Positions 22,143-46,650 of a stretch of DNA of 58,456 bases are shown here, in pieces; position 1 is the stretch's first letter, and every line of letters begins with the position of its first letter. The translations under genes were made by a program, and so were the position numbers. A model generated the notes under the pieces. It had not been told where the DNA came from. It saw nothing but the letters and a program-made list of their open reading frames with translations, and made no database searches. The DNA is from a virus: the IMG/VR virus record IMGVR_UViG_3300035034_000432; one strand, given 5' to 3'.

Positions 22143-22577
22143 ATGATTACAGCAGATTACGGCAATCAAGATAGCGCAATTACATGGGCGCAAGAACGGC
22201 TTGCCGGCCTTAGCTTTCGGGATGACGCAAAGACCATAGCCTTTACCCGGGAGTGTGGATCTTACGCTGCAGTGATTGTGTATGACGGGTTTTCGCAGTG
22301 TGACTGCAACATTCACGTTGTCAGTGACGGCTCATGCAGCTGGATGACAAGGCAGATGCTTTCTCGGGCCTTTGCATACCCGTTTGTTCAGCTGGGATTG
22401 CGCAGGGTGACCGGGCTGGTACCGAAAAAGAACAAGGCGGCATTAAACATGGATTTGCGCCTGGGGTTTGAAATAGAAGGTTTGTGCAGAAATGCGCTCC
22501 CTGACGACGATGTTTACGTAATGGGCATGCTCAGGGAGCATTGCCAATTCATTCCACAGGAGTATCGAAATGTTTGA
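22143..22577 (+). CDS. GNAT-like acetyltransferase (putative)
   Basis: 144 aa. LGLRRVTGLVPKKNKAALNMDLRLGFEIEGLCRNAL.DDDVYVMGMLREH resembles the C-terminal core of GNAT acetyltransferases (R.t..v...N..a......lGF..EG..r). Confidence 0.5.
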   Translation: MITADYGNQDSAITWAQERLAGLSFRDDAKTIAFTRECGSYAAVIVYDGFSQCDCNIHVVSDGSCSWMTRQMLSRAFAYPFVQLGLRRVTGLVPKKNKAALNMDLRLGFEIEGLCRNALPDDDVYVMGMLREHCQFIPQEYRNV

Positions 22578-24968: not shown

Positions 24969-24981
24969 AAGGAAGGCCGGC

Positions 24982-27900
24982 GTGGCGCGAAATCTATTCT
25001 CGGAATCAGCTGTAGATACATTTACCCGCGACGTTAAAAGCAGCCCGTACCAGCTGCCGGACCTTTCGGAGCTTAAAAGCAAAAACCCTGCACTTTCAGG
25101 CGGTGCGCCTGGCGATGTGCAGCTGGACGTTAATTACGACCCAGCGAGTTTAAAGCCGCCAGAGCAATTCGCGCAGTTTTTTAACACTGCGTCAGAAACC
25201 CACGGCGTACCTTCCGATATTCTGCAGGCGCTTGCACAGCAAGAATCATCCTACCGGCCTGATGCTATTGGCGTGGAAACCCAGTGGGGCCGCGCCAAGG
25301 GCATGATGCAGTACCTAGACAGCACCGCTAAGGGAATGGGCATCAACCCGTTCAATGCGGAGCAGTCTATCAACGCAGCGGCACAGCAGATTCGTGACCG
25401 GATAGCGAAAGGTTACAGCATGGAAGAGGCCATCATGGCTCACCATGGCGGCGACAATCGCAAGCAGTGGGGGCCAAAAACCCGAGCTTACGCCAAGAGC
25501 GTAATGAAAAAGGCCGGCGTATTGGCCAACAACCCTGGCATTTACCAGTCTGCAGGAGATCCCAACCCGCAGCCGCCAGCATTGCTTGCGCGCGAGGGTA
25601 CCGGTTACGACCCTGAACAGCGCGAGCCACGTACAGCCGAGCAGATTACTGACGGGCTGATGCGCAACACGCTCAAGAAGCAGGAAACAGGGCCAATCAC
25701 CGTTGAGCAGGGCTGGGGCGTCAACAAAGATATGCCGGACGGATCGAAGCCGGAGACTGCCATCCGGTTTGAACGTGCGACCGGAGCTTACGCCAAGGAC
25801 GCTGGGCCAAAGGATTACGACACGTTCCTGCAGGCGACCAAGAAAGAGCTTCAAAACGTACCAGAAAACATGACGCAATCAGCTGGCGGCATGATTCAGC
25901 TATTGGGTGAAAGCCTGGGAGAAGAGCGGGAGCGTTATTTTGCAGACGCGGGCCGGCGCATGGGCCTGACTGCACCAGAATTTAAAATGATTTATTGGGC
26001 CGAAGAAAACGGCCTGATTACCGAGGCCATGAAAGCCGGTAAAGATATCAAGATGGTTGCCGAGCAGCTGAAAGACCAGCTATCAGCCATTCCTGACGAG
26101 CGTATTCAGCGGGCTATTGTTGAGGGTGGTCTAGTGTCGCCCGAGCGCTTGGCCGGCTTTGGCGAATACGTCAGAAAGTCACAGGAAGAGCAAAAAGAAA
26201 CTGTAAACGCAGAGCCTGGCACATTGGGCTATTACGGCAGCCAGGCTATCCGCAGCATTGCGGAGAACATGCCCGCGCTGGTTATGTCCATTGCCACCAA
26301 AAACCCAGCCTACGCATTGGGTGACATTGCCTTTCGCACAACTGGCCAGTCATACGGTCAAGGCCGCGATGCCGGTTTGGACCCTGAAAAAGCCCGGGAA
26401 TACGCCACTGTCATGGCGATGGCCGAGGTTATTCCAACTGCAATACCGCTGGCCAGATTTATGGCTCCAGGCGGCAGCAACATTCTAAAGCAGATTTTTG
26501 GCGATGCACTGACCGAAGGCGCGCAGGAAACCATTACCGCAGCACTGCAGGCCGGCATAGACAAAGACTACATCAATCCAGATATGACCCTGAAAGAAGC
26601 GCTGATTCGCATGGCCGAGGGCGCACTGGTTGGCACAATGGCCGGCGCAGGTATTGCCACCGGCATACGTGTAGGCGAAAGAGCGATTGGCGCTGCCCGG
26701 GGCGGGGAAGAAGGCGAGCGGGCTAGAGCGCTTGCTGCAGAGATTGACCGAAACGTAAATGACGGCGAGTTTACCGGCAGCCTTGATGAAGCCGTAAACC
26801 GGGCTTATAACAACGTGCGAGGAACTGCCGGCGGGGCAGACTTTACCGGAGAGTCGACCGAACAAGGTGAGGTGGTCCGCGAAACAGTACAGCCAAGCAG
26901 GACAGACGTGCTACAAGGCCGGTCGCCGGCAGAGCTTGAACAGAAGTTTGACATCCTTGAAGCACTGGATCTGCTAATTGGACAAGCGGGCAAGCTGGAT
27001 GGCCGGATAACCGAACAGGCCGATGAAGCGCCCCTGGGAGCGCTAGGCCGCGCGCAACAAGAAAGCGTAAGAGAGGCCGCACTCGAAACAATTAAGGGTG
27101 AGCGCGTTGCGGTGAAGACGCCCACCGGTGTCATTGACGGCATTGTGTCCGAATACACCGAGGACGGACTCGGAAACTTTAATGCCCGCATTTTGGATTC
27201 TGCCAGCGGTGAGTTGTTCCAGTTTACTCAAGACGATGAAATCACCATTGCCAGGTTGATGGGTAACCGTGGCGTTAAAAAAGAAGAATTGCCGCCAGAA
27301 GAGCCAATGCCGCTGGAAGAAATGACGCAAGGCCAGCTTGTTGAGCAAATGAAAACGATCAACCAAAGGGCCAAGGACAACGGGTTCACCGCTGAATTAC
27401 TAAAAGAGCGGCAGCAGGTTGAATCCCTGATTAAAGATTTGGCCGAATTTGAAGGCAAACAAGGCGCCGATATTGACGCCATGGCCGACCAAGCAGGCGG
27501 TGAGCAAGATCAGTCCTCCATGCAGCCAACCATGGAAGAAATGCAGGCCGAGCAATCTGCAGCAGACCGCCGGCAAGACCCAGCAAAGCGCCGCCGAGTT
27601 GCGGATATGGCGCCCGAAGAAATGCAGAAAGCATTGCTTGAGTCAGACCTGACCGGCTTGGGTAACCGCCGCGCATACGCGGAAAACCCACGTAAGGCAG
27701 TTCAGGTATCGGTAGACGCCGATTCGCTCAAGTGGGTAAACGACAACATGAGCCATGGCGCCGGCGACCAGATGCTGCAGGCTATTGGCCGAGCATTGCA
27801 GAACAATGGCGCAGACGCTTATCACCCAAGCGGTGATGAATTTTGGGTGCAGGCTGACACGCAGGAAGAAGCCGACAACCTAATGGCATGGGTGCAAGAT

Positions 27901-30900
27901 GAACTAGAAGACGCTGTTATTGAATTTCAGCTTCCGAACGGCGAAATTATTACGAAAAAAGGAATAGGACTTAGTTATGGCACCGCGGAAACCATTGAAG
28001 CAGCCGAACAAAACCTCCAAGCCGACAAATCAAACCGACAGCGCGCAGGGCAGCGCGCAGGGCGAGGCGAAACCCCGCCAGGCGTCACCAGAAGTAACGC
28101 CAGAGTTCCTGGCGACACTGCCCGAGGGGACCAAGATTCTGAAGGTAACGCTGCCGAACGATTAACCGAAAAACAACAGCGTGATATTGGCTACCAAGAC
28201 CGCTTGGAAGAGCGCGCGAACAAGATCATTAAAGCTGATACCAGTGAAGAAATTGACGCCATTGTGGCCGAACATGAAAAAGACCCTGATGGTCACATGG
28301 AAGGCGTCAGCAAGATCCAGTTTGTAGCAGAGTCGCGTAAGGGCGCCATTGAAAACCCAGTAACTCCTGGCCTGATTGAGTCTTCTACTTCAGAGCGGGA
28401 AATAAACCTAAAGCTTGAGCGCGTCAAAGCAGATAACCCTGGCAAGCAATACAAAGTAGAGAAGCGGCAAGGAGGGTTCGGGCCTTACTTTGAGCTTATT
28501 GAAACCCAGCAGGAAGCAGTGGAAGCCGGCAATCCAAAGCGCGACAAGGCTGTTCAGCGGATCACCGATGGCAAAGCGTGGTTTGGCACCGAGGATAAGG
28601 CAAACAGCTTTATATCAAAGAACGAATTGGGCGACGAGTACGGCGTAGAGCAGAATGGCCAGCGGTTTGACGTTAAGCCATTGACCGAAATTGGCGCCGA
28701 AAAACGCCAGCAAATAACCAAGAACGATGGCACACCGTTTATGAGCGAGGCAGTGGCAGCCATTGCCATGAAAAATCGCCGTTTAAAGGGCTATGAAATT
28801 GTGGCCGTTGAAGGTGGGTTTGTACTTGAGCCAACAAAAGGGAACCAGGATGCGACAGAAGCAGCGCCAGCGCCGGAAGCAGCGCCAGAAAAAAGCAAAA
28901 AGTGGACAGCTGAATACCGAGCAAAAGCCAAAGAGCTAGGCATGGAGGAAGGCGGCAACGGTTATGGCGTCATGTTTACCACTGACGGCGGTGTAACCGT
29001 AAATTCTTCAATCACCAAGGTAACCAGTGGCCAGTTCCAGGCGTCTACATCGGCAAAAAGTGGATCTGTCACTGTGCCATCTGTATCCAGAAGGTTTGAC
29101 ACGTTCGACGAAGCGGTAGAAGACTTGCGCAGCCGCGATGCGCTGCCCGATGAAATTTCTGGAAACACAGGGCTGATTGGTGAAAATACACCTAAAGCCA
29201 TAGCGTCAATGAAATCGGCGCGAACCAATCCCGATGTTAAAAAAATAACGCCGGATAGCCGCGGCAGTTATCCCACGAGCGAGCTTCCTGAATGGTCAGA
29301 CGCTGGCCGCGGGTTTAAGTCGCGCCAATACGTTGTTGGCAAAAGAGTATTTCAGGAAGTAAAAAGCCCAAGGGGCAATGTCGTTACGAGAATGCTGGAC
29401 GCGAACGACAACCCAACCGCTTCCATTGACGCACCGCTAAACGAGTTCTTCAACGGCAGAGCAACCGAAGAATTTGATGGGTTCTTTGATAAAGCGCCTG
29501 CTATTTCTGCGCCAAAGAACGACAGCAAGGAGCCAGGTAAAAAGCCGCAGGTGAGCCGCACAGAGAAGGCATTGGGCGCCGTTAAGGGTGACACCGTAGA
29601 GCGCACCAGGGCCGATGGCACCAAGAAGACCTACAAAGTCAGAGATATTGACGGTAAGGGCGTGGCAGACCTGCAGCAAGTAGATGGCAAGGGCGGTTAC
29701 ATGATGAGCGCCAATGAAATCATTGCTGACAAACGGGATGGCACCAAATTTGCCAAGGTTGAACTGGCCGCTGGAGAGCTTGAGGTAATTGAGCTTGAGC
29801 CGCCAAGGGGCGGGCCAAATCTTCGACCAATAGAGATTTACCAGCAAATTGATGGCAAGCGCACATTGGTATTAGAGGCCAATATTGGGCAAGCAAAGTT
29901 TACTGACGGCAGTTTTCAGCGTCATCACGCCATGAAAAATCTGAACATGGCGCCAGAAAATAACCCCGCATACTTCCAGGTGTATTTTGTATCCCCGGCA
30001 GCCACGGACCCTGGCGCCGTATTGGAAAAAGCCATATCCGTTGCTACTGAGAAAAAAGTACCTTCCATATTTTTTATGAACATGGCCGCGTCAGAAAGAA
30101 ACGCCAAAATTGATACCGCCATCTTGACTAGAATTGGATTTCAAAAAGTGGGTGGCCGAGACAACTACGGTATGGCATTACCGGCAGCCGTTAAGTTTGA
30201 GCGCCCATCATCGGATGATGTTTTCAAGGCAGCCAGTGACGAATATGCGCTGCGAAACCCAGCATCTGTTCTTGCTCAACTGGCATTGGACGAAGAAGCA
30301 GGCCCAACGGACCGACCAGATTTTGCATACGGCCCTATGAAAACAGCCATGTATCAGCCTTCACGCCGTGGCCAGGGCGTTGCGGAAAGCCGAGCTAAGT
30401 CATTGTCGGAACGTGACGGCAGGAGCTACGCGGTAATTGAAATGTTTGGTGGCCTGACCGGCAGCAAGAGCGCTGGATACGTTGTTGTTCGCTCTGTTCC
30501 AGATATGCCAACAATGGACGAGTTATTCAGCGCTTCTTCAAACACCGGTTTGGGCGGTGACATCAACACCGAAATAGTGTTTGTGGCCGAGGGCAAGCAA
30601 GAAAAGGCAGCCGTGCCTGCAGCGATGCCCGAGCTTGAGCAATGGATGCGGAATAACAAGCTTGTTATTGGTGACACCATTCAAGCCGACGACAACTTGG
30701 CCTCAGAAATAATTAAGGGCGTTGACTACCAGCTATTTTCCGATGGACAGGGAGGGCTATTACTGCAGGCTCCATCCGGCGCCGTTCGATTGTCCAGAGA
30801 AATACTGCGCAGCATCAACAATTCTATAAGACCACCGGTGATTACCAAAATTGAGGCGCAGCAGGACGACCCAGTAGCGGTTAAAGGGCTGCGTGATTTC

Positions 30901-33900
30901 ATCGAACAGGAGTGGGACAAAGGCCAGCGCAACCGTTTCGCACTGGAAGACGGCGAGGTGAACGGCAAGAAGATCACCATTAACCAGAACGATGCCAGCG
31001 CAACAGTGGATGGAGTGAGAGTTCCATTCCTCGAAATCCAGTGGAAAGCGCTTGAAAAGCGTAAACAGGCGGAATCGCGCTCAAAAGGGCCAGATTCCGG
31101 CGTGAGCAAAGCAATTGCCACAGTCTTTGCTGCGCAGCGCTCTTTTTATAGCGAAAAAACAAAATCAACGGCGCCTATTGACCGAGCCGAACTGGTTGCA
31201 GCCATTGAGGCAGCGAAAACCGCAGGGATTGATGTTTCTTATATTCCCGCAAAGAACAGGGACGACAGCGAAGTTTGGACGCTAACAACCCCTGGCGGAG
31301 ACAGCTATACGGTTTACTTGTCGTCAACCGGCAGGGCGATGTGGAAGCAGGCTTCAACACCGAACGAAGAAACAGCACCCGACATTCAGCCTATGGACGA
31401 GTGGCGCGGCGACACAATGAAGACCCGCGAATATGCTAAACAGCTGGTCAATTCAGGGCTTGTATCGCGCAGTGAGTTTGAGAAGGCATGGCCGAAAACG
31501 CCGGAACTGACCCAGCTGATTGATCGTTACGAGAGTAATGCAAAACCAGCAGAAGAGCCGAAACTGCGCACACTAGACGATTTTGGCGAAGTTCTGGACG
31601 GCGTGGGCATTAAGCCAGGCGAGCAGTTTTCTACCACCAGTGGGCGCACGACTACGCCATACCCTAAACAGAAGTCAGAAAAATACGCTTCACAGTGGCT
31701 GATTGAAAACGCAACAGCGGAAGCCAGGGCGCGCGGTAACGACTTTGCAGCGGATCAGTTTGAGCAAATTACTCCACTTAAAGGCGGGTTCCTGACCCCG
31801 GCTGACAAAGAAAGCATGACCCTGTACCTGTTCGGGGATAGCACAGGCGCTGACACTGGCGCCGGCGCAAGCATACTCAAGCCATTATCTACGCCAAAGG
31901 CTGACGCATCAAAAGCCAGAAAGCCAAAGGCAAAATCTGCAAAGCCGGCACAGGAAAGCATTGTAGAAAAGTCGCAGTCTACCGAATGGGGCGCCAACAA
32001 CACGCTGGTATCCAGGGAGCGGGCCGACGAACTACGCGCCAAGCTAAAAGCCAAACTGGGTAACCTGAACAGCGGGCTGGACCCTGAAATCATGGCCGCT
32101 GGTACCGAGCTTGCCGTGTATCACTTGGAAGCCGGCGCCCGCAAGTTTGCACAGTTCGCCAAAGCGATTGCTGCAGACCTGGGTACCAGGCCATCACAAC
32201 TACGGCCATTCTTGCGCAGCTGGTACAACGGCGCCCGGGATATGATGGAAGACAACGACCTTTCCATTGAAGGTACCGACAGTGCAGACGTGGTGCGTGA
32301 ACAGCTGGCCAACATTGAGCAGCTGGACGTTGAAGATGCACCGGTTACCGAGGGTGAACGAACACTTGCTGACGAGCTATACGATAACCTTGATTCAATC
32401 GGGGACAACCGCAAGCTGAAATCAGTCATTGCCGCCTTCAACAACATGAGGCCGGCAGAAGTCGACGCCGCTATGATGAAGGACGCGCAAGAACAGCTAG
32501 AGTTAGCCATTACTCGCAGGGCGCGGGAGATTGCAGCCGAAGGTTTAACCGTAGAGGAAACCTACGACAAGCTGCTAGACCTGTACCAGTCGCAACCGCG
32601 GCTAGATATGCGCTCAAGCACTTCCATGAAGAATCAGGCGTATTCGACACCAGCGCCATTGGCTTACCTGGCATCCAAGATGGCGGGCATAACTCAAGAA
32701 ACGACCGTGTACGAGCCGACCGCCGGCAACGGCATGCTGCTAATCGATGCAAATGCAGAGACAGCCGTAGTCAACGAGCTAAACGACCTACGTGCGCAGC
32801 AGCTGAGAGCGCAGGGCTACAACGTCACGCAGAATGACGCCACAACCTTTGTGCCAATTCGATTGGTTGATTCGGTAATTGCCAACCCACCGTTTGGCAA
32901 GGCGCCAGAAGTCGTGAAGTTTGACGGCTACAAATTAAGCCAGATTGACCACGTTATTTCGGCTAAAGCGCTTGAATCACTCAAAGACGATGGCCGTGCA
33001 ACCCTGATACTGGGCGCCAGCATGGAACAGGGCGGTATGTCGGCAGCCGATCGCATCTTCTTCAACTGGCTGTATAGCCATTACGGCGTAGAGTCACACT
33101 TTGAGGTAGACGGGAAGCTTTACCAGCGCCAGGGCGCCGGCTGGCCAGTTCGCGTTATCACAATCAATGGCCGTAAAAACAGCGACCAAAATTCTACAAA
33201 TGTCGGCGATGTAAGCCGCGCAATGACTTGGGGCGAAGTCTATGAACGATACAATGAAAACGTGGATGCCAGCGCCGGACGGGCTGACACCGCAGGGACA
33301 GAAGGCGATGACAGTACGACTGTTACCCGGGACGAGCCAACCGGCGACCCACGCACAATTCCGGGACCGGCTGGAGTCGAAACTGGCACGACTGGTACGG
33401 CAGGCACAGGTGGCCGAGGACAACGTACCGGAACTACTGGAAGTAATGCCGGATCTAAAACTGGCAGCCAGCCAGGTGGGACCAAAACCAACACCAAATC
33501 AGATGGCAGCAGCACTGATGGAAGCCGACAGCCTAGTGGAAATGATGTACAGGGTGGAACACAAGGCGGGCAAGGTCAGCGGGGAAGCCAGGGCGGAGTA
33601 CGAAAGCCAGGATCTAAGGGCGTTTCTACAACTGATGGCAAGCCAGACAGCGTAAGTGGATCTGACTACCAAGTAGGATACACCGCGCGCTCAGAAGGCC
33701 CAAACAACGAAGTTCTGACACCGGTGAATATGGCCGAGGCAACAGAGCGAGCGTTAACGCGCATTGAAAATGAAGTGGGCAATCTGGATCAGTACGTTGT
33801 CGACAAGCTGGGATACGCCAGCAAAGCGGAGTTATACGAAGCCATGATGGGGCTGCAGATTGATGCCGTGGCCGCAGGCATTTACAACATGGAAAATGGC

Positions 33901-36900: not shown

Positions 36901-39900
36901 GGGACAATTACCAAGAAAGTGAAGTTTGACGAGCCGCTAATGAAGGCCATGGGCGCCGAGTTTGTAGGCTCTGGATCAACGATGGTAGCCGTATTTGATA
37001 TAAGCCGAGTGGATGCCGTGACCGAGGCGCTTCTTGACTTGGTGACCCTGCAGGGCAAGCCGGATCAGCGTAAGGCATGGGTGCAGGCGGGAGGCCAGGC
37101 GCGGGCAACCGCAGCCAAGAGCTTTACCGAAGGCGCGACCGACACAGACGATGCCATGCTGCGCCGGCCAGGTGGACAGACTGAAACCCCGGCATTCAAA
37201 AAATGGTTTGGGGAAGGCGGATTACGCGATGATTCCGGCAATCCTTTGGTTGTTTACCATGGCACCAAGACAGATTTCAGTGAATTTAAAACGACAGGAC
37301 TGAAAAGGACTTCGGCTGGGGGGCAATCCGGTAAAGGAAGAATTAGCCTAAGCACTGATTCCAACGTTGCCAGCCGCTACGCTACGGATATTGCCACAGG
37401 CTCTGCACTGCCAAAAAAACCAAGCCGATTTGAGTTAATGGATTATTTTGATTCGATAGGTGACACGCAAACAGCAAGGCACGTTGAACAGTATTACGAT
37501 CCCGGCAACAAGCAGCAGCTTGCAATGTATTTAGCCAAAGACCCTTCAGGCGGCAACGTAATGCCAGTCTATGTTCGGGGAAAGGTGAAAATAGTTGATG
37601 CCAGCAAGGCAATGCCCGCCGGAAACTCTGGCTTTGGGTGGTTCACGCGCGAAGAAAATTCCGCCAAGAAGGAAGGGTACGAGGTTGTTAAGTTTGAAAA
37701 CGTACCTGGAAACCTATTTCCTGATGACATTGGGAAAATAACGGTATTTGATGGATCTCAAATCAAATCCGCCACCGGCAACACCGGCGACTTTGATTCC
37801 AACAGCGCAGACATTACCTTGCGCCGCGGTAAAACCGGACTAAACCTAAAACAAAGGATTCTCGACCGGTTCACCAAGCCCGAGAACATCATGCAGGGGT
37901 GGGCAAACGCGCCAGAAGTTGTTAACGCAAAGTCTATGGACGACTTGCCGGCTGACCTGCAGGAAAAAATCCGCAGAGAGGGCGCTGAACGAGACTTCAC
38001 CGGCATTTACCAAGCCGGCGTGATGTACCTGTACTTGCCAAATATGCGCAACGCGGCAACCCTGCAGGAAACCATACTGCACGAAGGCATTGGCCACTAC
38101 GGCGTAGAGGGATTCTTTGGGCCACAAATGAAGCCGATGCTACAGCAGGTATTCCAGAATTTCCGCGGCACACCAGAAGCCAAAAAGCTGATTGCCGCTT
38201 ACTACACCAAGGAAAAGTTTTCAGGATCTAATCCTAAGCACCGAGTTCGTATAGGCGCCGAGCTACTGGCGCACCTGGCTGAAAGCAACAAGCACCGGAC
38301 CCTATGGAGCAAAATTCACAGCGCGATACTGGCCGGCTTGCGCCGGATGGGATTCACCATTCAGCCGTCGAAAGCTGACCTGTACAAGATACTGCGGGCA
38401 GCCGAGCGCTTTGTTACCAATGGTGAGATAGCCATGCGCGGCAGCACAGACGTTTATTTCAGCCGCAAAGGTGATATGCAACCAACAGGCACCAAGGAGG
38501 CGATAGACCTGAAGCCAGTATTGGCTGCCAGCAAGAAGGCACTGTATATCAATGCCAAAACAGTGATCGAAAATGGCCGCTTCATTGGTTCTATAGACAA
38601 GGCCATCAACAGTGGCGAGCTGACTGACGCAGAAATTGGAATGCTTATGGGTGATGCTGATTTTGGGGAGTCAGCCGTTGTTATGAACGACTTAGACACC
38701 CAAAAAGCCATCAGAATTATTGCCAATTCATCGTGGCAGCTATCCGATTACATGGGACCAGGCGGATACCAGACCGTTAACAGCACGGCCAGCAACCCAT
38801 CGACCAAGCAGGTTAAGGTTTCAGTCAAAACCCCGTTCTTCATTGAGCGTGGCTGGAATGACTTTAGTGACAACCAAGTTCAGACGCTTGTAGATATGGG
38901 CTATGACTCAATCGTTGATGTGAGCTTCACCGAGGCCACCATATTCAACCCAAGCGTAATGTCAGGCCCGGGTAAGCCAAAGTTAACAGAGGCTACCAAT
39001 GACGCTCCGGTAGCACAGAAAGCGCCTTCAAACTCCGCAATTGCAGAAAGAAACTCCGCAATTGCAGAAAGAAAGCCGGCAGCTGCAGAAGGAAACCTCA
39101 CAGCAGAAAAAGCTGCAACTGGGACCGGGGTGGAACGATTTGACGGCGTGAATGTTCCGGTTGTTAATTTTTTAGGAACTATAAATGCTCAAGGTAACTT
39201 TGATTCCATTTTGGGCGCCACGTACAACCGACCAATTGGCGCAGCAACGGCCAAAGAAAACTCCCTGTTCCCTGGCAACGAACGTCGAATCAGCGTGGCC
39301 ATGTTTGCCACTACTTCTGGACCAAATGCACGGCCAATTGATCTGTATAGCGTACCGCTAGATCAGCTTATTAAAATGGTCCCGGGCATGGCCGAACAGG
39401 TAAATGCACTCTACGAAAAAAACCAGCCTATAAAAGCCGAGGACTTGGATGCACAGCTGGACGAGGCTTACACGATTATTGAATCTTCCATTAGCGACAT
39501 TGAAGACAATGACGCCATCCATTTTCCAGACAACGAAGGGATAGCTGGCGTAGAAGCCAGTAGGATTCGGGATTTAATCGAAGCTGGTCCAGGTGACGTG
39601 ATTGATGGCCAAGAAGGCAGCATTGATGAATTGATGGCCGTCGAATGGGAACGTTTTTTGGAAGGCCAGGGCGGGCGCAATAAAGAAGAGTTTATTCGCG
39701 TATTGCGTGGTTTGGTAGACGAGTTCAGCGACCGGATGGGTGGCGAGAAAAATTACACCGACGAAGCTGTTTTTGAGGCTGCCAGAGAAGCTTACCAGCT
39801 GCGCCAGCGCCGCGGCAGCCGCAAAAAGACCAGCGACGATAACGCTTACCTGTCACGCAGGCCGAACATTGACGACCTGACGCCAGAGCAAAGAGCGGAA

Positions 39901-42900
39901 GCCGCGCGGAATGCACTGACGGCAGCCGAAAACGGTCTTGCCGGTATACCGCTAAGATCAGCCAAAGTTGTTGGCGATATGAGCATTGCCGCTAACTTCC
40001 TTGTCCATCCTCGCCAGGTGGCGACCCTTCACAAGACGTTTACACCGGTGTACAGCACTGCAGTTAGTCAGTTTGAAATGCGCGACCGCATCATCGATAC
40101 CCTGTCCGCGGATTACAGCCCGTATATGCAGATGCGAAAAGCCAGCAAAGAAAAAGTGAACAAGTTGCTGGAACTGGGCCGCATCATTGGCGTGACCTAC
40201 ACCCAGTCAGACAAGCTGACAACGGATGGAATCATCGTTCCATACGAGGTTGACCGTGTGATTGTGACTGAAGAAGGCGAAAAGATAATCGCGCAAGAGC
40301 CAATCCAGCTTGAGTTATCGCAGCCCGGGGACAAGATAAAGCTGACGGAAGAGGAAGCAACGGCGTACCTGAGAATGCGCGATATGTTCAATGCTGCGCT
40401 GAATATGTTTAAGAGCCAGATGCTCAAAGAGTTTGGCTTGGGTGACTATGCCGGCATGGAGAACGTGACAGCAGAAATAATGAAAGATATTGAATCAGAT
40501 CCCATGATGCCGACCAAAAAACTTGAGCGGCTACTGCAGATTGCCAAGACCATTGAGGAAATTGAGCAAGCCAAGCGCCGTGGGTACGTGCCACTGGCGC
40601 GAGAAGGTGATTACGTGGTCACCGTTAAGCAGAAGCCGGAGAACATGACGGTTACTGAGTCTGGCGATAACTACGTGCTTTCTGGACTGTCTAAGACCTA
40701 CAACCCGGTATTGGAGGCAGTAGGTGGCACCAAAAAGGATGACGGAACATGGCTGATGGACCCCAAGGCTTACCGCGAGTTTTTAAACGATGCCGAGCGC
40801 GTAATTTACAGCACAAAAGTTGAGACAGGTTTCCGCGATGCGTTTTCTATTCGCAAGCTTGGCCGGAAGGGTGGCGGGCAAGAAAAAATACCGTCAGTCA
40901 AAAAGGCCATCATTGAAATCAATGAAAAATGGGTGAAGGGCCATTCAGACAGAAGGATAGACACTTTCCCAACAAACAAGATCAACCCTGAAAACATAAA
41001 TCTGGACCAAATGGACAACCTGGCCAGCCTCGCCGGCGTGGACAACGAGCAGTGGGACATAATCAGGGACCAGATGGCCAACGAAATTAAAGGCCGAAGC
41101 TTCCGGCGGCATTTCTTCCGTTCCGACAATGTTCCAGGCTACAGCACTGACTTTGAGCGCAGTATTTCCAGCTACATTTCCGGCATGGGCGGTTACCTTT
41201 CACGGCGCCATCATATTCAACAGTGGGACGCTTCAATCAAGAAGATAAAAGCGCCAAGACTGCACGGTTACGCGAATAAGTACCGCGAATACACCAACAA
41301 CCCGACAGAAGAGTTCGCCATGCTGCGGCAGACGGGATTCTTGATGTACATTGCCGGCAACCTGTCTACGGCACTGGTCAACGTGTCACAGGTTCCAGTG
41401 ATGACCATGCCGTTTTTGAAGATGATTTCAGGCAATGCGATAGCCGGCAAGGAAGTGGCGCGAGCTTACAAAGACGCCTTGCTAATGTTTAGGGCTGACC
41501 GCAAAACGGGTTTGCAGATATTTGATGTGGACGCAGCACCGGCGGATATTGCCACTGAATTGAAGGAAGCGTGGGCCGAGGGCGCATTCGTGCCGCTGGA
41601 AACCTATGAAGTAATGGCAACAGCAAGGACCAGGGGCGTAGGTCAGCGCCAGCTTAAAAGGAAGTTTGAGCGCAGCATCCAAGCTATCGCTTACACCTTC
41701 ACGGCAGCCGAGCGGCTAAACCGACTGGTGACGTTTATTGCCGCGGCGCGGATCGTGAAATCAGGCAAGTATGACGAAAAGATCAAGCGTGTGCTGGGCG
41801 GCAATCACTTGGCTAACGCAACCCTGTTTAGTGGCAAGGGGCTGACAGCCAAAAAGTTTGGCGAATTTGCCATTGATGAAACTCAATTCAGGATGGGCAA
41901 AGTTAATCGGCCACATATAACCCGGGGCGTAGGTTCTGCAATCATGCAGTTTAAGGGCTTTATGCTGCAATCGCTTGAAGCGTGGTACCGCTGGTCCACA
42001 GTACAGGGCAAAGAAGGCAAACTGGCTGCGGCATCCTCGCTTGTGATGATGATGGCATTGGGTGGCTTGTGGGGCTTCCCTGGCGGCGAAGAGATAAAAG
42101 GGCTGATCGAAGCGCTATATCGCAAGCTGACCAAGGAAGACAAAGACCTTGAAACGGACCTACGCTTGTACATTGCAGAAACGAGTGGCCAGCAGTGGCT
42201 TGCTGAGTTTGTGACAAAAGGCGCCGGTTACCCGATGGGCATTGATCTTAGCCGTATAGGCATGGGTGACCTGCTACCAGATGACACAGTATCGGCGCTA
42301 GGCATACCTTATGACTTGACCATTGGCAGAGCCACAAGAGCTTTTGAAAAGGCTTCACAAGGGCAGTACGTCATGGCAGGCGCTGAGTTCCTTCCAAACT
42401 TTGTGAAAAACCCTGTGCAAGCGGTGACCTGGGCCAGTCAAGGGGTAAGGGATGGAGCAGGCCGCCGGATATTGACGCCAGAACAGGTAAGACCGAATTA
42501 CGTTCTGAAAAAATCCTTTGGTTTTCAACCGTCAGCTGTAACCAGTGTGCGCGATTATGAGTATGCGCAGTACCGCGCAGAAACTGCCATTTACAAAAAG
42601 AAAACGCGGATCTTAAACAGCCTGGCAAAAACCATTGTTCAGATGGAGCAATCGCAAGATCCAGATTTAAAGCTTGAGTTACAAAGTGATATTGAAGAGA
42701 TTTTCATAGAAATTGAGGCTCACAACCAAAAGCAAAAATCTGAATCACGCATTATCACCATTAGCGATAGAGCTTTAGACAACCGGATCAGGCGCGAAAT
42801 GGAAGGTGTACAAAGCACCTATGGCCGCGAGAGAACTGGGGCGCGCAGTGAAGCCGAGCAGATGCGTAGAGGTTTCGGTATTAACGAAATATTATCGCAA

Positions 42901-42912
42901 GAGGAAGATTGA
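24982..42912 (+). CDS. giant polyvalent virion protein (SLT, GGDEF-like, N6A-MTase, Sno/SNF2-like helicase, ART-like, membrane-associated C-terminus)
   Basis: One uninterrupted frame, listed by the ORF track as 24928-42912 (5,994 aa). I prefer GTG 24982, which lies 5 nt after AAGGAAGG and avoids a 41-nt overlap, giving 5,976 aa. Domain motifs are listed as separate features. Confidence 0.9.
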   Translation: MARNLFSESAVDTFTRDVKSSPYQLPDLSELKSKNPALSGGAPGDVQLDVNYDPASLKPPEQFAQFFNTASETHGVPSDILQALAQQESSYRPDAIGVETQWGRAKGMMQYLDSTAKGMGINPFNAEQSINAAAQQIRDRIAKGYSMEEAIMAHHGGDNRKQWGPKTRAYAKSVMKKAGVLANNPGIYQSAGDPNPQPPALLAREGTGYDPEQREPRTAEQITDGLMRNTLKKQETGPITVEQGWGVNKDMPDGSKPETAIRFERATGAYAKDAGPKDYDTFLQATKKELQNVPENMTQSAGGMIQLLGESLGEERERYFADAGRRMGLTAPEFKMIYWAEENGLITEAMKAGKDIKMVAEQLKDQLSAIPDERIQRAIVEGGLVSPERLAGFGEYVRKSQEEQKETVNAEPGTLGYYGSQAIRSIAENMPALVMSIATKNPAYALGDIAFRTTGQSYGQGRDAGLDPEKAREYATVMAMAEVIPTAIPLARFMAPGGSNILKQIFGDALTEGAQETITAALQAGIDKDYINPDMTLKEALIRMAEGALVGTMAGAGIATGIRVGERAIGAARGGEEGERARALAAEIDRNVNDGEFTGSLDEAVNRAYNNVRGTAGGADFTGESTEQGEVVRETVQPSRTDVLQGRSPAELEQKFDILEALDLLIGQAGKLDGRITEQADEAPLGALGRAQQESVREAALETIKGERVAVKTPTGVIDGIVSEYTEDGLGNFNARILDSASGELFQFTQDDEITIARLMGNRGVKKEELPPEEPMPLEEMTQGQLVEQMKTINQRAKDNGFTAELLKERQQVESLIKDLAEFEGKQGADIDAMADQAGGEQDQSSMQPTMEEMQAEQSAADRRQDPAKRRRVADMAPEEMQKALLESDLTGLGNRRAYAENPRKAVQVSVDADSLKWVNDNMSHGAGDQMLQAIGRALQNNGADAYHPSGDEFWVQADTQEEADNLMAWVQDELEDAVIEFQLPNGEIITKKGIGLSYGTAETIEAAEQNLQADKSNRQRAGQRAGRGETPPGVTRSNARVPGDTARGDQDSEGNAAERLTEKQQRDIGYQDRLEERANKIIKADTSEEIDAIVAEHEKDPDGHMEGVSKIQFVAESRKGAIENPVTPGLIESSTSEREINLKLERVKADNPGKQYKVEKRQGGFGPYFELIETQQEAVEAGNPKRDKAVQRITDGKAWFGTEDKANSFISKNELGDEYGVEQNGQRFDVKPLTEIGAEKRQQITKNDGTPFMSEAVAAIAMKNRRLKGYEIVAVEGGFVLEPTKGNQDATEAAPAPEAAPEKSKKWTAEYRAKAKELGMEEGGNGYGVMFTTDGGVTVNSSITKVTSGQFQASTSAKSGSVTVPSVSRRFDTFDEAVEDLRSRDALPDEISGNTGLIGENTPKAIASMKSARTNPDVKKITPDSRGSYPTSELPEWSDAGRGFKSRQYVVGKRVFQEVKSPRGNVVTRMLDANDNPTASIDAPLNEFFNGRATEEFDGFFDKAPAISAPKNDSKEPGKKPQVSRTEKALGAVKGDTVERTRADGTKKTYKVRDIDGKGVADLQQVDGKGGYMMSANEIIADKRDGTKFAKVELAAGELEVIELEPPRGGPNLRPIEIYQQIDGKRTLVLEANIGQAKFTDGSFQRHHAMKNLNMAPENNPAYFQVYFVSPAATDPGAVLEKAISVATEKKVPSIFFMNMAASERNAKIDTAILTRIGFQKVGGRDNYGMALPAAVKFERPSSDDVFKAASDEYALRNPASVLAQLALDEEAGPTDRPDFAYGPMKTAMYQPSRRGQGVAESRAKSLSERDGRSYAVIEMFGGLTGSKSAGYVVVRSVPDMPTMDELFSASSNTGLGGDINTEIVFVAEGKQEKAAVPAAMPELEQWMRNNKLVIGDTIQADDNLASEIIKGVDYQLFSDGQGGLLLQAPSGAVRLSREILRSINNSIRPPVITKIEAQQDDPVAVKGLRDFIEQEWDKGQRNRFALEDGEVNGKKITINQNDASATVDGVRVPFLEIQWKALEKRKQAESRSKGPDSGVSKAIATVFAAQRSFYSEKTKSTAPIDRAELVAAIEAAKTAGIDVSYIPAKNRDDSEVWTLTTPGGDSYTVYLSSTGRAMWKQASTPNEETAPDIQPMDEWRGDTMKTREYAKQLVNSGLVSRSEFEKAWPKTPELTQLIDRYESNAKPAEEPKLRTLDDFGEVLDGVGIKPGEQFSTTSGRTTTPYPKQKSEKYASQWLIENATAEARARGNDFAADQFEQITPLKGGFLTPADKESMTLYLFGDSTGADTGAGASILKPLSTPKADASKARKPKAKSAKPAQESIVEKSQSTEWGANNTLVSRERADELRAKLKAKLGNLNSGLDPEIMAAGTELAVYHLEAGARKFAQFAKAIAADLGTRPSQLRPFLRSWYNGARDMMEDNDLSIEGTDSADVVREQLANIEQLDVEDAPVTEGERTLADELYDNLDSIGDNRKLKSVIAAFNNMRPAEVDAAMMKDAQEQLELAITRRAREIAAEGLTVEETYDKLLDLYQSQPRLDMRSSTSMKNQAYSTPAPLAYLASKMAGITQETTVYEPTAGNGMLLIDANAETAVVNELNDLRAQQLRAQGYNVTQNDATTFVPIRLVDSVIANPPFGKAPEVVKFDGYKLSQIDHVISAKALESLKDDGRATLILGASMEQGGMSAADRIFFNWLYSHYGVESHFEVDGKLYQRQGAGWPVRVITINGRKNSDQNSTNVGDVSRAMTWGEVYERYNENVDASAGRADTAGTEGDDSTTVTRDEPTGDPRTIPGPAGVETGTTGTAGTGGRGQRTGTTGSNAGSKTGSQPGGTKTNTKSDGSSTDGSRQPSGNDVQGGTQGGQGQRGSQGGVRKPGSKGVSTTDGKPDSVSGSDYQVGYTARSEGPNNEVLTPVNMAEATERALTRIENEVGNLDQYVVDKLGYASKAELYEAMMGLQIDAVAAGIYNMENGKGQIIADQTGVGKGRQAAAMLRYALSVGKTPIFVTAKDNLFTDMVNDLSDIGTKGAKPFLLNKDSFVKKDGKRIFTNPKKAGKHKNTLQGIVNTGQLPEGSNMLFMTYSQINKPNIQRDVLSALKGNAVFVLDESHNAAGDREIKKKGGAQRTTAGFIYDTIAESPVQYLSATYAKTPNNMPVYYRTDMMDAVDDADQLVEAMQIGGPPLQTILAGMLAESGQLFRREKSFEGISVDTEIDYDNSEKHTKTADAVTQGLRAIVEADKAFHSVTVAALNDVAKASGGVAASGGNQASKGVDHTHFTSIVHNFVGQMLVGLHIDLTVKKAIELNKAGKKTVIALENTMSSFLVRYIKDKGLQMGDPIDADYRDILQDALNRTRGVNYTLPNGEKETRYIPLSQLSPEVLKVYTKAMKAIDGIQIDLPISPIDFVRNELTKAGITTSEITARSVIIDYSSGQPIVAKRDSREIDDRRGTVDGYNSGEYDSLVLNAAGSTGLSIHSSERFEDKRPRHMLVMQSMSDINILMQMLGRINRTGQVNLPAYTFIGSDIPAEKRILARTTQKMKSLNANTSANTDSDTSLKAPDILNKYGDKIVNDYLTENMTLALRLDMWVTGGDMTPDAGTASQFTGRLALLKVSEQREIYEDIEEQYENFMDYLNKTNQNDLETEVIDFQAKPIESKVAYEGTAPGTIFGGNTILHKADVKYQGKAPLPEEVAADLDKAGDPQQVKQDILDKKAADTGPAERIKALAAKRQSDLEVAEIAGDEKKVKAAKAAMKSSESNMTGYNDNKRQVIDLIETFTIGRRVKLEIEGEEVTGVITGVKDTFKPGKGNPYARSKTIVSFAIPSGIRRIDLPLTRLRYGEIFKGFERGTGKTGLEDIFKADMAGANRRETRYLATGNVIAGMAKLKGRIISFTDQKGKIHQGILMPKNYSRGIDDSFETIEGTVAFPIRDAKVMANYIRQNIASIGTSPLIDTSKEVVVSSFKGRPSISVPRNNKGTITKKVKFDEPLMKAMGAEFVGSGSTMVAVFDISRVDAVTEALLDLVTLQGKPDQRKAWVQAGGQARATAAKSFTEGATDTDDAMLRRPGGQTETPAFKKWFGEGGLRDDSGNPLVVYHGTKTDFSEFKTTGLKRTSAGGQSGKGRISLSTDSNVASRYATDIATGSALPKKPSRFELMDYFDSIGDTQTARHVEQYYDPGNKQQLAMYLAKDPSGGNVMPVYVRGKVKIVDASKAMPAGNSGFGWFTREENSAKKEGYEVVKFENVPGNLFPDDIGKITVFDGSQIKSATGNTGDFDSNSADITLRRGKTGLNLKQRILDRFTKPENIMQGWANAPEVVNAKSMDDLPADLQEKIRREGAERDFTGIYQAGVMYLYLPNMRNAATLQETILHEGIGHYGVEGFFGPQMKPMLQQVFQNFRGTPEAKKLIAAYYTKEKFSGSNPKHRVRIGAELLAHLAESNKHRTLWSKIHSAILAGLRRMGFTIQPSKADLYKILRAAERFVTNGEIAMRGSTDVYFSRKGDMQPTGTKEAIDLKPVLAASKKALYINAKTVIENGRFIGSIDKAINSGELTDAEIGMLMGDADFGESAVVMNDLDTQKAIRIIANSSWQLSDYMGPGGYQTVNSTASNPSTKQVKVSVKTPFFIERGWNDFSDNQVQTLVDMGYDSIVDVSFTEATIFNPSVMSGPGKPKLTEATNDAPVAQKAPSNSAIAERNSAIAERKPAAAEGNLTAEKAATGTGVERFDGVNVPVVNFLGTINAQGNFDSILGATYNRPIGAATAKENSLFPGNERRISVAMFATTSGPNARPIDLYSVPLDQLIKMVPGMAEQVNALYEKNQPIKAEDLDAQLDEAYTIIESSISDIEDNDAIHFPDNEGIAGVEASRIRDLIEAGPGDVIDGQEGSIDELMAVEWERFLEGQGGRNKEEFIRVLRGLVDEFSDRMGGEKNYTDEAVFEAAREAYQLRQRRGSRKKTSDDNAYLSRRPNIDDLTPEQRAEAARNALTAAENGLAGIPLRSAKVVGDMSIAANFLVHPRQVATLHKTFTPVYSTAVSQFEMRDRIIDTLSADYSPYMQMRKASKEKVNKLLELGRIIGVTYTQSDKLTTDGIIVPYEVDRVIVTEEGEKIIAQEPIQLELSQPGDKIKLTEEEATAYLRMRDMFNAALNMFKSQMLKEFGLGDYAGMENVTAEIMKDIESDPMMPTKKLERLLQIAKTIEEIEQAKRRGYVPLAREGDYVVTVKQKPENMTVTESGDNYVLSGLSKTYNPVLEAVGGTKKDDGTWLMDPKAYREFLNDAERVIYSTKVETGFRDAFSIRKLGRKGGGQEKIPSVKKAIIEINEKWVKGHSDRRIDTFPTNKINPENINLDQMDNLASLAGVDNEQWDIIRDQMANEIKGRSFRRHFFRSDNVPGYSTDFERSISSYISGMGGYLSRRHHIQQWDASIKKIKAPRLHGYANKYREYTNNPTEEFAMLRQTGFLMYIAGNLSTALVNVSQVPVMTMPFLKMISGNAIAGKEVARAYKDALLMFRADRKTGLQIFDVDAAPADIATELKEAWAEGAFVPLETYEVMATARTRGVGQRQLKRKFERSIQAIAYTFTAAERLNRLVTFIAAARIVKSGKYDEKIKRVLGGNHLANATLFSGKGLTAKKFGEFAIDETQFRMGKVNRPHITRGVGSAIMQFKGFMLQSLEAWYRWSTVQGKEGKLAAASSLVMMMALGGLWGFPGGEEIKGLIEALYRKLTKEDKDLETDLRLYIAETSGQQWLAEFVTKGAGYPMGIDLSRIGMGDLLPDDTVSALGIPYDLTIGRATRAFEKASQGQYVMAGAEFLPNFVKNPVQAVTWASQGVRDGAGRRILTPEQVRPNYVLKKSFGFQPSAVTSVRDYEYAQYRAETAIYKKKTRILNSLAKTIVQMEQSQDPDLKLELQSDIEEIFIEIEAHNQKQKSESRIITISDRALDNRIRREMEGVQSTYGRERTGARSEAEQMRRGFGINEILSQEED
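25174..25455 (+). other. domain: SLT-type lytic transglycosylase
   Basis: GVPSDILQALAQQESSYRPDAIG......AKGMMQYLDSTAKGMGINPFNAEQSINAAAQQI. The catalytic Glu of the E-S motif is at nt 25243-25245. Confidence 0.85.
27640..28045 (+). other. domain: GGDEF-type nucleotide cyclase (SGDEF variant)
   Basis: DLTGLGNRRAY....AVQVSVDADSLKWVNDNMSHGAGDQMLQAIGRAL......AYHPSGDEFWVQADT.EEADNLM..V...L...........IGLSYGTAET.EAAEQNLQADKSNR follows the GGDEF consensus D.LTGL.NRR / D.D.FK.iND..GH..GD..L / GGDEF / iS.G.a / A...y.AK..GRN. SGDEF lies at nt 27829-27843. I see no RxxD I-site. Confidence 0.8.
32590..33200 (+). other. domain: N6-adenine DNA methyltransferase (DarB-like)
   Basis: SAM-binding motif I VYEPTAGNGMLL (nt 32713-32733), followed by catalytic motif IV VIANPPFGK (NPPFG at nt 32884-32898). 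Confidence 0.85.
33270..33660 (+). other. low-complexity G/T/S/Q-rich linker between methyltransferase and helicase
   Basis: ...TGTTGTAGTGGRGQRTGTTGSNAGSKTGSQPGGTKTNTKSDGSSTDGS...GGTQGGQGQRGSQGG... Confidence 0.8.
33850..36000 (+). other. domain: SF2 helicase of the strawberry-notch / SNF2-like type (DarB-like)
   Basis: Motif I IIADQTGVGKGRQ (nt 33919-33945), motif II FVLDESHNAAG (DESH at nt 34297-34308), motif III-like LSATYAK, motif VI QMLGRINRTGQ (nt 35482-35514). Confidence 0.85.
37190..37800 (+). other. domain: ADP-ribosyltransferase-like (polyvalent-protein ART type)
   Basis: FKKWFGEGGLRDDSGNPLVVYHGTKTDFSEF ... ISLSTDSNVASRYA ... YEVVKFENV ... ITVFDGSQIKSATGNTGDFD. The F.kWFG...G.PlvvYHGT...F and ..QIKSA.gN.G.FD pattern is what I remember from ART domains fused to MuF/polyvalent phage proteins. 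Confidence 0.6.
38035..38110 (+). other. motif: HExxxH (LHEGIGH), possible non-canonical metallopeptidase-like site
   Basis: YLYLPNMRNAATLQETILHEGIGHYGVEGFFG. The His-Glu...His spacing is one residue longer than the zincin HExxH, so this is only a flag. Confidence 0.25.
39031..39072 (+). repeat. perfect 21-bp tandem duplication (NSAIAER x2) inside the giant gene
   Basis: aactccgcaattgcagaaaga occurs at 39031-39051 and again at 39052-39072. Confidence 0.95.
40570..42909 (+). other. C-terminal region with PLxR(F/E)G-like motif and hydrophobic/TM-like segments
   Basis: RRGYVPLAREGDYVV (PLAREG at nt 40591-40608). Hydrophobic segments: FLMYIAGNLSTALVNVSQVPVMTMPFL (about 41340-41420), AIAYTFTAAERLNRLVTFIAAARIV, and LAAASSLVMMMALGGLWGFPG (about 42020-42085). 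Confidence 0.45.
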
Positions 42913-46649: not shown

Positions 46650-46650
46650 G

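Follow-up and report, generated by a model that had tools for sequence, protein, structure and literature searches.

An 18-kb phage gene for a giant, cysteine-free protein that probably serves as an ejected carrier of polyvalent enzyme domains

The giant gene and the domains of its product

The window that we analyzed, i.e. the whole 58,456-nucleotide (nt) stretch of viral DNA recorded as IMG/VR virus record IMGVR_UViG_3300035034_000432, harbors on its plus strand a single open reading frame (ORF) of about 18 kb, and this giant gene together with its predicted product is the subject of the present study. An earlier note on this DNA, made from the sequence without database searches, had described a frame running uninterrupted from 24928/24982 to 42912, with ~5,980 codons and 31% of the genome. 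Translation bears this out: the frame is open over 24928..42912 (+), comprising 5,994 codons from the first ATG with zero internal stops in both the ORF listing and the translation, and the gene as delimited in Table 1 has 5,976 codons and occupies 30.7% of the window. Per 5,976 codons, the two remaining forward frames are interrupted by 298 and 361 stops (5-6%), and with off-frames so rich in stops, an open frame of this length is not due to chance. The likely start codon is GTG 24982, which is positioned behind a Shine-Dalgarno-like sequence and 13 nt downstream of the stop of the upstream gene (24966-24968), and which was also chosen by public gene calls on two ENA contigs (5,976 amino acids, aa); a start at ATG 24928 would mean a 41-nt overlap with the upstream gene. 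Protein coordinates in this text are counted from ATG 24928.

Given that the sequence stems from metagenomic short-read assemblies, one might surmise that the 18-kb ORF is an artefact, resulting either from chimeric assembly or from several genes joined by sequencing errors, but we regard the chance of this as vanishingly small. By looking up neighboring proteins in public assemblies, we found 15 loci in the JGI, ENA MEGAHIT and Logan collections, under at least 10 sample/run accessions (some of which may re-assemble the same reads), with 100% identity to the window over the covered pieces of the ORF, and identity of this kind across three assembly collections makes an assembly artefact unlikely. 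The two ends of the window (1-127 and 58330-58456) are identical over exactly 127 nt, indicating that the assembly is circular, closed and complete at 58,329 bp. A contig of 58,419 bp is interrupted within the ORF solely by virtue of a different circular permutation, and a '5,862-aa' gene call on one JGI contig represents a permutation point inside the giant gene and nothing more. Besides the self-closure of the window and the stop-rich off-frames, the frequent occurrence of colinear homologues of 3,300-5,089 aa also speaks against an artefact. The giant ORF is one real gene of 5,976 codons, the last of the virion module. No convincing terminator was found after it. A 54-codon ORF of the public annotations (42892-43056, minus strand) overlaps its last 21 nt, and small minus-strand genes are also found directly after the giant gene in phage JC1 (PMC9144972).

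Table 1. Features of the giant gene, its product and the two genes directly upstream
Feature	Coordinates (nt)	Residues (aa)	Strand	Basis and remarks
Two upstream virion-protein genes (431, 368 aa)	22570..24968		+	phrog_8003 9e-131, phrog_9667 3e-48, 'virion structural protein'; 0 cysteine each
Shine-Dalgarno-like AAGGAAGG	24969..24976		+	Read in sequence; 5 nt ahead of GTG 24982
Giant gene	24982..42912		+	5,976 codons from GTG plus stop; 653.4 kDa; isoelectric point 5.4; 0 cysteine
SLT lytic transglycosylase	25180..25497	85-190	+	Pfam PF01464 E 8e-13
Conserved region after SLT	25615..27327	~230-800	+	16-20/120 homologues; Gly/Ala-rich hydrophobic stretches
GGDEF-type nucleotide cyclase	27580..28047	~885-1040	+	Pfam PF00990 at aa 919-1037, E 3.8e-8
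Orphan block 1	28075..31527	~1050-2200	+	12 short weak phmmer hits only
Conserved all-helical domain	31930..32355	2335-2476	+	Just before methyltransferase; phrog_10089 E 5e-45
N6-adenine DNA methyltransferase	32605..33267	~2560-2780	+	PHROG methyltransferase families, best 7e-12
G/T/S-rich low-complexity linker	33268..33702	2781-2925	+	35 G, 24 T, 17 S in 145 residues
Strawberry-notch-type (Sno) helicase	33715..36717	~2930-3930	+	Pfam AAA_34, ResIII, Helicase_C_4
ART-PolyVal ADP-ribosyltransferase	37228..37794	4101-4289	+	Pfam PF18760 E 1e-15, profile positions 1-140 of 140
Candidate zincin-like metallopeptidase domain	37885..38427	~4320-4500	+	HEGIGH 4385-4390; third-ligand candidate E4445
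Orphan block 2	38428..39897	~4501-4990	+	Only fragments of the same protein match
PLxRFG/LPD38-type module	39925..42909	5000-5994	+	NCBIfam NF032893 6e-65; phrog_11358 3e-52

A homologue search with the N-terminal half of the protein retrieved at least 183 proteins, and fractions of 120 in this text refer to the 120 that were listed. Profile searches with Pfam, PHROG, NCBIfam and PADLOC, conducted on overlapping 1,000-aa pieces, recovered all five domains that the earlier note had named, and in the same order (SLT, GGDEF, N6A-methyltransferase, Sno helicase and ART); what that module list had missed were a HExxH metallopeptidase-like domain and a helical domain at aa 2335-2476. Self-BLAST of the giant protein disclosed no internal repeats. 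The SLT at the N-terminus contains the catalytic QQES (aa 104-107) and GMMQY (aa 125-129), and the proposal that the protein opens with an SLT in the manner of T7 gp16 is supported by its homology to the gp16 N-terminus, with 32% identity to gp16 residues 9-125 (E 4e-11); hhalign of the family profile vs. T7 gp16 yielded 90.7% probability, over the SLT only. The conserved region that follows (aa ~230-800) is also present in Vibrio phage VvAW1 (41.5% identity), and showed neither a Pfam match nor similarity to T7 gp16. The GGDEF-type domain scores 33.7 bits in Pfam vs. a gathering cut-off of 23.8 and is matched by NCBIfam diguanylate cyclases as well. Its motifs are LTGLGNRR (908-915), DADSLK (930-935) and SGDEF (968-972), the last of which aligns onto the GGDEF/GGEEF of solved cyclases; DxD, K, ND and GD are all present, including the guanine-specifying aspartic acid of the GD motif, and the RxxD inhibitory site is absent from the domain. 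GGDEF is rare in the family (2/120 homologues by Pfam labels and 1/120 by our own profile). The helical domain at aa 2335-2476, for which there is no Pfam family, occurs in 95/120 homologues and is second only to the SLT in how widely it is shared.

The methyltransferase, found in 79/120 homologues, displays motif I (EPTAGNG, 2596-2602) and motif IV (NPPFG, 2653-2657), with PADLOC returning weak matches only (mad2, type I methyltransferase and DrmD). The G/T/S-rich linker parts it from the helicase, and may act as a flexible tether or be subject to processing. In the Sno helicase, which is shared by 29/120 homologues, we recognized a P-loop AAA_34 segment (2990-3230, 2e-19), ResIII (7e-7) and Helicase_C_4 (3435-3652, 2.5e-18), along with the Walker A motif GVGKGR (3001-3006), DESH (3124-3127), motif VI GRINRTGQ (3522-3529) and a C-terminal extension. 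ART-PolyVal is present in 39/120 homologues and the HExxH domain in 16/120. Within the latter, H4385, E4386, H4390 and E4445 are invariant in a 12-sequence alignment, and the AlphaFold2 model of aa 4320-4455 has a predicted local confidence (pLDDT) of 81-94; as judged by its sequence, this domain is a candidate that fits the zincin-like metallopeptidase hub of polyvalent proteins, which Iyer et al. also regard as a potential autoprocessing enzyme (PMC5512222). Foldseek of the model of aa 4290-5010 vs. the PDB gave no analogue: anthrax lethal factor, a zincin, was considered and rejected, as a match at E 1.5 is not evidence. The sequence search of the PDB with the whole protein produced weak GGDEF matches only. 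On the whole, the catalytic motifs of the enzyme domains (GGDEF, methyltransferase, Sno, ART and HExxH…E) look intact at the sequence level.

The end of the protein, described in the earlier note as a hydrophobic C-terminus, is instead a conserved and mostly helical PLxRFG module of ~1,000 aa with one strongly hydrophobic helix, a 19-mer at aa 5699-5717 (nt 42022-42078). The NCBIfam model NF032893 ('tail-700') matches aa ~5370-5960 with 219.9 bits vs. a curated cut-off of 100. The eponymous motif reads PLAREG (aa 5222-5227; nt 40591-40608), thereby keeping P, L, R and G but having E in place of F; in two alignments of the module (A1 and A2), P223 and G228 are invariant and R226 nearly so. In homologues, the Pfam LPD38 model maps inside this module, which lies at the extreme C-terminus in 64-73 of them. 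AlphaFold2, run with a 23-sequence alignment, yielded a mostly helical model with a small β subdomain (pLDDT 77; predicted TM-score 0.69). Foldseek of this model vs. the PDB found no analogue (best E 0.35); vs. BFVD, which holds predicted viral protein structures, there were 41 significant matches, mostly C-terminal pieces of other giant phage proteins. A few of these are stand-alone proteins of ~1,400-1,500 aa, from Vibrio phage ICP2, Celeribacter P12053L and Roseobacter phage CRP-4, the CRP-4 protein being labeled 'internal virion protein D', which is an annotation only and not a test.

A family with constant ends, orphan stretches and almost no cysteine

The giant protein is a new and exceptionally long member of the known DarB-like/PLxRFG polyvalent proteins of the Bcep22/JC1/F116 type. 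The statement in the earlier note that Bcep22-like podoviruses carry a similar virion protein of ~4,600 aa proved apt, in that phrog_10089 ('DarB-like antirestriction', Bcep22 gp75 type), a profile of 4,647 positions, is colinear with the N-terminal, middle and C-terminal parts of the giant protein, the matched profile positions being 17-195 (7e-16), 1212-1522 (5e-45) and 4117-4618 (1e-18). With tblastn, we found matches in Itty13, Skulduggery, SopranoGao, LASTA, Parlo, PEp14, Pavtok, F116 and H66, with the matched genes annotated as either 'DarB-like antirestriction' or 'PLxRFG domain-containing protein'. The family is widespread, occurring in phages of Pseudomonas, Klebsiella, Burkholderia, Ralstonia and Erwinia as well as in Stx phages. 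To our knowledge, there is no solved structure and no tested mechanism for the PLxRFG family.

The 120 homologues range from 1,613 to 5,089 aa, with 119 of them at least 2,896 aa long, and many reside on ~60-kb contigs with shifting mixes of polyvalent domains. The SLT starts within residue 75 in 93/120, the C-terminal module ends no more than 59 residues from the C-terminus in 64/120, and both apply to 63; in these 63 homologues, the stretch between the two ends amounts to 2,091-4,259 aa (median 3,908) vs. ~5,000 in the protein described here. The family is made up of constant ends (SLT and PLxRFG) and a cargo middle of variable content and length, and the giant protein, being the longest retrieved, shows this build plainly, with two constant ends flanking a freely expandable middle. 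The contention that it is larger than any known example holds within the 120 listed homologues and is not generalizable beyond them; because the libraries list cluster representatives, which are possibly fragments, we make no claim to the largest protein of its kind. The module combination, which had also been thought to stand out, is not new, since a prophage protein reported by Iyer et al. 2017 already combines such domains (PMC5512222).

The earlier note had counted ~3,000 residues without a nameable motif as the likely seat of undescribed effector domains. Roughly half of these turned out to be family-conserved, with ~1,640 aa standing as true orphans. More specifically, the blank at aa 190-890 is largely the family-conserved region aa 230-800; the blank at aa 1058-2525 comprises orphan block 1 and then the conserved helical domain; and the blank at aa 4425-5190 contains the end of the HExxH domain, orphan block 2 and the start of the C-terminal module. 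In an exhaustive phmmer search of aa 1051-2250 vs. 1.84 billion representatives, the 12 hits obtained were all short and weak. Recurring patches in block 1 are located at aa 1192-1317, 1404-1535, 2047-2163 and 2142-2249, and the core of the block (aa 1536-2046) had no match in this search. Nine of the 12 hit proteins were scanned, revealing no informative Pfam domain save for one patch that adjoins InPase in another large protein, and Pfam searches with ten orphan pieces of 140-260 aa at E<=5 gave chance-level matches only. DNA scans of IMG/VR and JGI metagenomes for orphan relatives were negative and did not recover the phage itself either, indicating that those collections do not contain it. 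Likewise, the homologue search with aa 4500-5010 had no match, but it also missed an identical fragment (100% over 511 aa), and this negative is hence not trusted. In the protein collection, a 1,521-aa fragment stands for the 90% cluster of the 5,976-aa protein, leaving the N-terminal 4,473 residues invisible to homologue searches, and phmmer of aa 1051-2250 gave no self-hit. With a fragment as the cluster representative, 'orphan' means having no homologue among searchable representatives. Negatives for internal regions of giant proteins in general are to be read with such fragment representatives in mind.

In composition, the orphan blocks are globular-like, with order-promoting residues at 0.33-0.36 and aromatics at 6.5-6.8%, unlike the G/T/S linker (0.09 and 1.4%, respectively). 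Dips in hydrophobicity split the blocks into ~7-8 units of 150-210 aa. AlphaFold2 without homologues was uninformative for aa 4510-4870 (pLDDT 23-45) and gave pLDDT 61-85 for aa 4880-5000. These ~1,640 relative-less, globular-looking residues, situated beside host-manipulating enzymes, represent a defined place to look for new anti-defence activities.

The absence of cysteine is a further property of the giant protein, with none in 5,976 residues vs. a mean of 0.88% in the other 47 ORFs of the window (P about 1e-23); at the 0.56% cysteine of the structural module, the estimated P for zero in the giant protein is still about 1e-15. Across the 120 homologues, we counted 46 cysteines in 523,731 residues, with 105/120 proteins devoid of any. 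The ejection proteins of T7 (gp15, 0/747; gp16, 0/1,318) and of N4 (gp50 virion RNA polymerase, 0/3,500; gp51, 0/644; gp52, 0/150) are likewise cysteine-free, and cysteine is present in the comparators, namely N4 replication proteins (0.75-1.2%) and P1 DarB (9 cysteines). As independently acquired cargo in different lineages also lacks cysteine, this looks like selection on the route taken by the protein. The route that we surmise would take the protein in unfolded form through a narrow tail and the oxidising periplasm, as has been proposed for the N4 virion RNA polymerase (PMC13434306), and we count the absence of cysteine as independent support for injection. The word 'cysteine' occurs 0 times in the polyvalent-protein paper (PMC5512222). 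Absence of cysteine, common to every proven podophage ejection protein that we checked (T7 gp15 and gp16; N4 gp50-52), is a cheap and testable sequence marker of injected proteins, and may hold generally for what short-tailed phages eject.

Phage identity and genome context

Megablast of the giant ORF and the left 25 kb vs. 50,697 phage records gave no nucleotide match. At the protein level, the left arm of the window encodes the small and large terminase subunits, the portal (phrog_156), the major capsid protein (phrog_334) and tail fibres, continuing with a 587-aa 'internal virion protein' (phrog_511), a GNAT acetyltransferase and two 'virion structural proteins' (431 and 368 aa) and then the giant gene. 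Other than the giant gene, no ORF in the window exceeds 800 aa, and there is accordingly no tape-measure gene. The portal shares 50-54% identity with its counterparts in Pseudomonas phage Itty13, Agrobacterium Atu_ph08, Serratia Parlo and Ralstonia podophages, and the gene order of the Bcep22-like phage JC1 is matched almost gene for gene, as per the JC1 gene table (PMC9144972). Relatives of the major capsid protein are found in a Methylophilaceae metagenome-assembled genome (76% identity), a Pseudomonas sp. metagenome-assembled genome (71%) and a Hoeflea poritis genome contig (59%), the last of which is probably a prophage. Hints as to the host come solely from these capsid relatives.

That the giant gene directly follows two putative internal-virion genes, as the earlier note had it, agrees with the PHROG 'virion structural protein' matches of both (Table 1). 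The position of the 431- and 368-aa genes also coincides with that of virion-associated proteins in JC1 (PMC9144972), and we regard their products as candidate partner ejection proteins. A gene for a GNAT acyl-CoA N-acyltransferase (22143-22577; phrog_4470, E 1e-43) is lodged in the virion module just before these putative ejection-protein genes. With 6 cysteines in 144 residues, its product has the top cysteine density of the window, next to cysteine-free neighbors; JC1 has an acetyltransferase, gp63, at the equivalent place (PMC9144972). A lysis cassette (18839-19981) is also located within the virion module, between the tail-fibre genes and the gene for the 587-aa internal virion protein, and comprises, according to public gene calls, an XhlA-like 73-aa protein, a 164-aa protein and a 147-aa Amidase_2 endolysin; in Bcep22-like phages, the lysis genes come after the giant gene. 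To the right of the giant gene lies a recombination module with ERF and a YqaJ exonuclease (44571-47751, minus strand) and a single-stranded DNA-binding protein (48252-48977, plus strand). No integrase turned up among the scanned ORFs, which were not searched for one systematically, and the window has no tRNA genes. Relatives such as JC1 are temperate.

Proposed function and comparison with known systems

We consider it likely that this is the gene for the largest internal (ejection) protein of a short-tailed phage of the Bcep22/F116/933W type, which has grown into a polyvalent cargo carrier. Delivery into the host is inferred from the SLT, the position of the gene, the virion data on homologues and the absence of cysteine. 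As for the virion data, JC1 gp69, a homologue of 4,515 aa, was detected with 51 unique peptides by mass spectrometry of CsCl-purified virions (PMC9144972), and phi24B gp47, abundant in virions by mass spectrometry and absent from the cryo-electron microscopy map, has been put forward as an ejection protein (bioRxiv 10.64898/2026.04.10.717836). A relative is also essential, in that knock-down of PTXU04 gp25 abolishes plating (PMC11879866). In short-tailed phages, the DNA is generally preceded by three ejected internal proteins, the third of N4 being an enzyme of 3,500 aa (PMC13434306).

In the scheme that we postulate, a few copies of the giant protein would be packed in the head, and the 431-aa, 368-aa and giant proteins would be the three ejection proteins of this phage. 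On infection, the giant protein would exit via the tail, largely unfolded, along with the two upstream proteins; the SLT would open the peptidoglycan, and the C-terminal module, by means of its one hydrophobic helix, may anchor at, or help form, the inner-membrane end of the DNA conduit. The cargo would then refold in the cytoplasm, where the methyltransferase-helicase part would, by analogy with DarB, shield incoming DNA from restriction, the ART would modify host proteins, and the GGDEF domain would make a cyclic dinucleotide, probably c-di-GMP. Cleavage of the chain by the metallopeptidase may release the individual enzymes. We also entertain, more tentatively and with somewhat less than even confidence, a wider proposal in which the SLT…PLxRFG frame is a general delivery chassis, the ban on cysteine is the footprint of the route, and the orphan blocks are unseen injected effectors, most likely directed against host defence. 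If this were true, the two orphan blocks (~1,150 + ~490 aa) would hold ~7-8 domain-sized effector units, and depletion of cysteine could offer an easy means of predicting ejected phage proteins across whole genomes.

Several observations weigh against the reading of an ejected, enzymatically active cargo carrier. With the Pfam model N6_Mtase, the methyltransferase attains 16.1 bits, which is under the cut-off of 20.4; the GGDEF site is SGDEF (first G to S) and not the canonical GGDEF/GGEEF; and the HExxH domain has no Pfam, PDB-sequence-profile or Foldseek match, so that its fold assignment rests on the motif. Homology to T7 gp16 past the SLT was sought by BLAST (aa 200-900), by hhalign of alignment A2 and by Foldseek vs. 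the PDB, and none was found; for this reason, an ejectosome role of the C-terminal module would rest on position, conservation, the cysteine signature and one BFVD annotation. As for P1 DarB, BLASTP of aa 2300-3950 aligns only methyltransferase motifs I-IV (26 bits, E 0.049) and the helicase parts of the two proteins do not align; DarB is thus rejected as an orthologue, and an anti-restriction role is proposed by analogy between domain classes. Several small structural proteins in the window are cysteine-free too, which renders the signal weak for the two upstream genes (P about 0.02-0.04 each).

Both the SGDEF site and the sub-threshold methyltransferase score would fit an alternative in which the protein is a structural ejectosome component or spacer, its enzyme-like domains being relics or scaffolds and its orphans fast-evolving filler, with length and ends, rather than catalysis, being what matters. 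The constancy of the ends vs. a middle free in content and length is in line with this idea, as are the pLDDT of 23-45 in orphan block 2, the orphan stretches without detected relatives, and the finding that PTXU04 gp25, a relative of 2,198 aa, is needed for plating on a laboratory host, on which cargo directed against defence ought to be superfluous (PMC11879866). We nevertheless deem a purely structural role unlikely, given that the same enzyme classes recur in the family (methyltransferase in 79, ART in 39 and Sno in 29 of 120) and that the orphan blocks are composed like globular domains, unlike the true linker. Moreover, relic domains usually lose their catalytic residues, whereas those of the giant protein are all present (SLT, GGDEF bar the G to S change, methyltransferase motifs I/IV, Walker A, DESH, motif VI and HExxH…E). 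A different possibility is a late-made, unpackaged protein that acts in the producing cell as ordinary phage methyltransferase-helicases do, e.g. by methylating progeny DNA, since a methyltransferase would be able to protect progeny DNA without injection. This we find highly improbable, because the gene is the last of the virion module and its product begins with an SLT, which would be pointless in the cytoplasm, and because homologues were recovered from purified virions (PMC9144972; bioRxiv 10.64898/2026.04.10.717836); furthermore, the family-wide absence of cysteine mirrors that of proven ejection proteins, in contrast to P1 DarB and the tested replication proteins, which contain cysteine.

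Seen as an ejected cargo carrier, the giant protein invites comparison with several known systems. Like Bcep22 gp75 and JC1 gp69 (Lessievirus), it is encoded by the final virion-module gene of a ~60-kb podophage, has an N-terminal SLT, a helical domain plus methyltransferase in the middle and a C-terminal PLxRFG module, and shares with them a near absence of cysteine; association of these giant homologues with the virion applies to JC1 and, as stated in the JC1 paper, to Bcep22 (PMC9144972). Unlike them, the protein described here is ~1,300-1,450 aa longer and contains a Sno-type helicase, a GGDEF domain and two orphan blocks. Compared with Bcep22, JC1 and PLxRFG proteins, identity is only 20-50% in the shared parts, and the lysis genes here are upstream of the giant gene. 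In having several unrelated effector domains in one chain of >2,000 aa, beside portal-terminase genes, the protein also resembles phage-type polyvalent proteins, which Iyer et al. 2017 found beside portal-terminase genes and for which they predicted delivery with the DNA and autoprocessing by peptidases (PMC5512222). Of the hub domains of that class (N6A-methyltransferase, SNF2/Sno ATPase and zincin metallopeptidase), the Sno ATPase is clear here; the methyltransferase is a sub-threshold Pfam match backed by PHROG matches and motifs, and the peptidase is a candidate backed by the invariant HExxH…E and a confident local AlphaFold2 model. An example is the Acetonema longum prophage protein WP_004096050.1, with GGDEF, an SNF2-type ATPase, an N6A-methyltransferase, a zincin metallopeptidase and an ART (PMC5512222), which we liken to the giant protein by description only and not by sequence, as the polyvalent concept denotes a class and not a homologous family. 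Neither the cysteine-free property nor the constant SLT…PLxRFG frame is described in that paper (PMC5512222).

With T7 gp16, the giant protein shares a homologous SLT, the lack of cysteine, and the position of its gene as the largest and last of the internal-protein set. T7 gp16, which is ejected before the DNA, differs in being 1,318 aa long and in carrying no enzymatic cargo. The 3,500-aa virion RNA polymerase of N4 (gp50) is, similarly, a giant cysteine-free enzyme of a podophage, and for this third ejection protein, passage through the tail in unfolded form and refolding once inside the host have been proposed (PMC13434306). It differs from the giant protein in its unrelated sequence, its single activity (RNA polymerase) and the lack of an SLT. 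For the methyltransferase-helicase part, P1 DarB offers a functional model. DarB is a head-packaged N6A-methyltransferase and helicase that protects incoming DNA from type I restriction, and it needs partner proteins, among them DarA, Hdf, DdrA, DdrB and Ulx; it differs in that its helicase is not of the Sno type, in coming from a myovirus, and in its 2,255 aa with 9 cysteines. According to the authors of the JC1 study, homologues of the DarB partners are not found in Bcep22-like phages (PMC9144972). The class to which the giant protein belongs is itself known; what this member adds to it is a chassis-plus-cargo architecture, a cysteine signature and ~1,640 globular-looking orphan residues.

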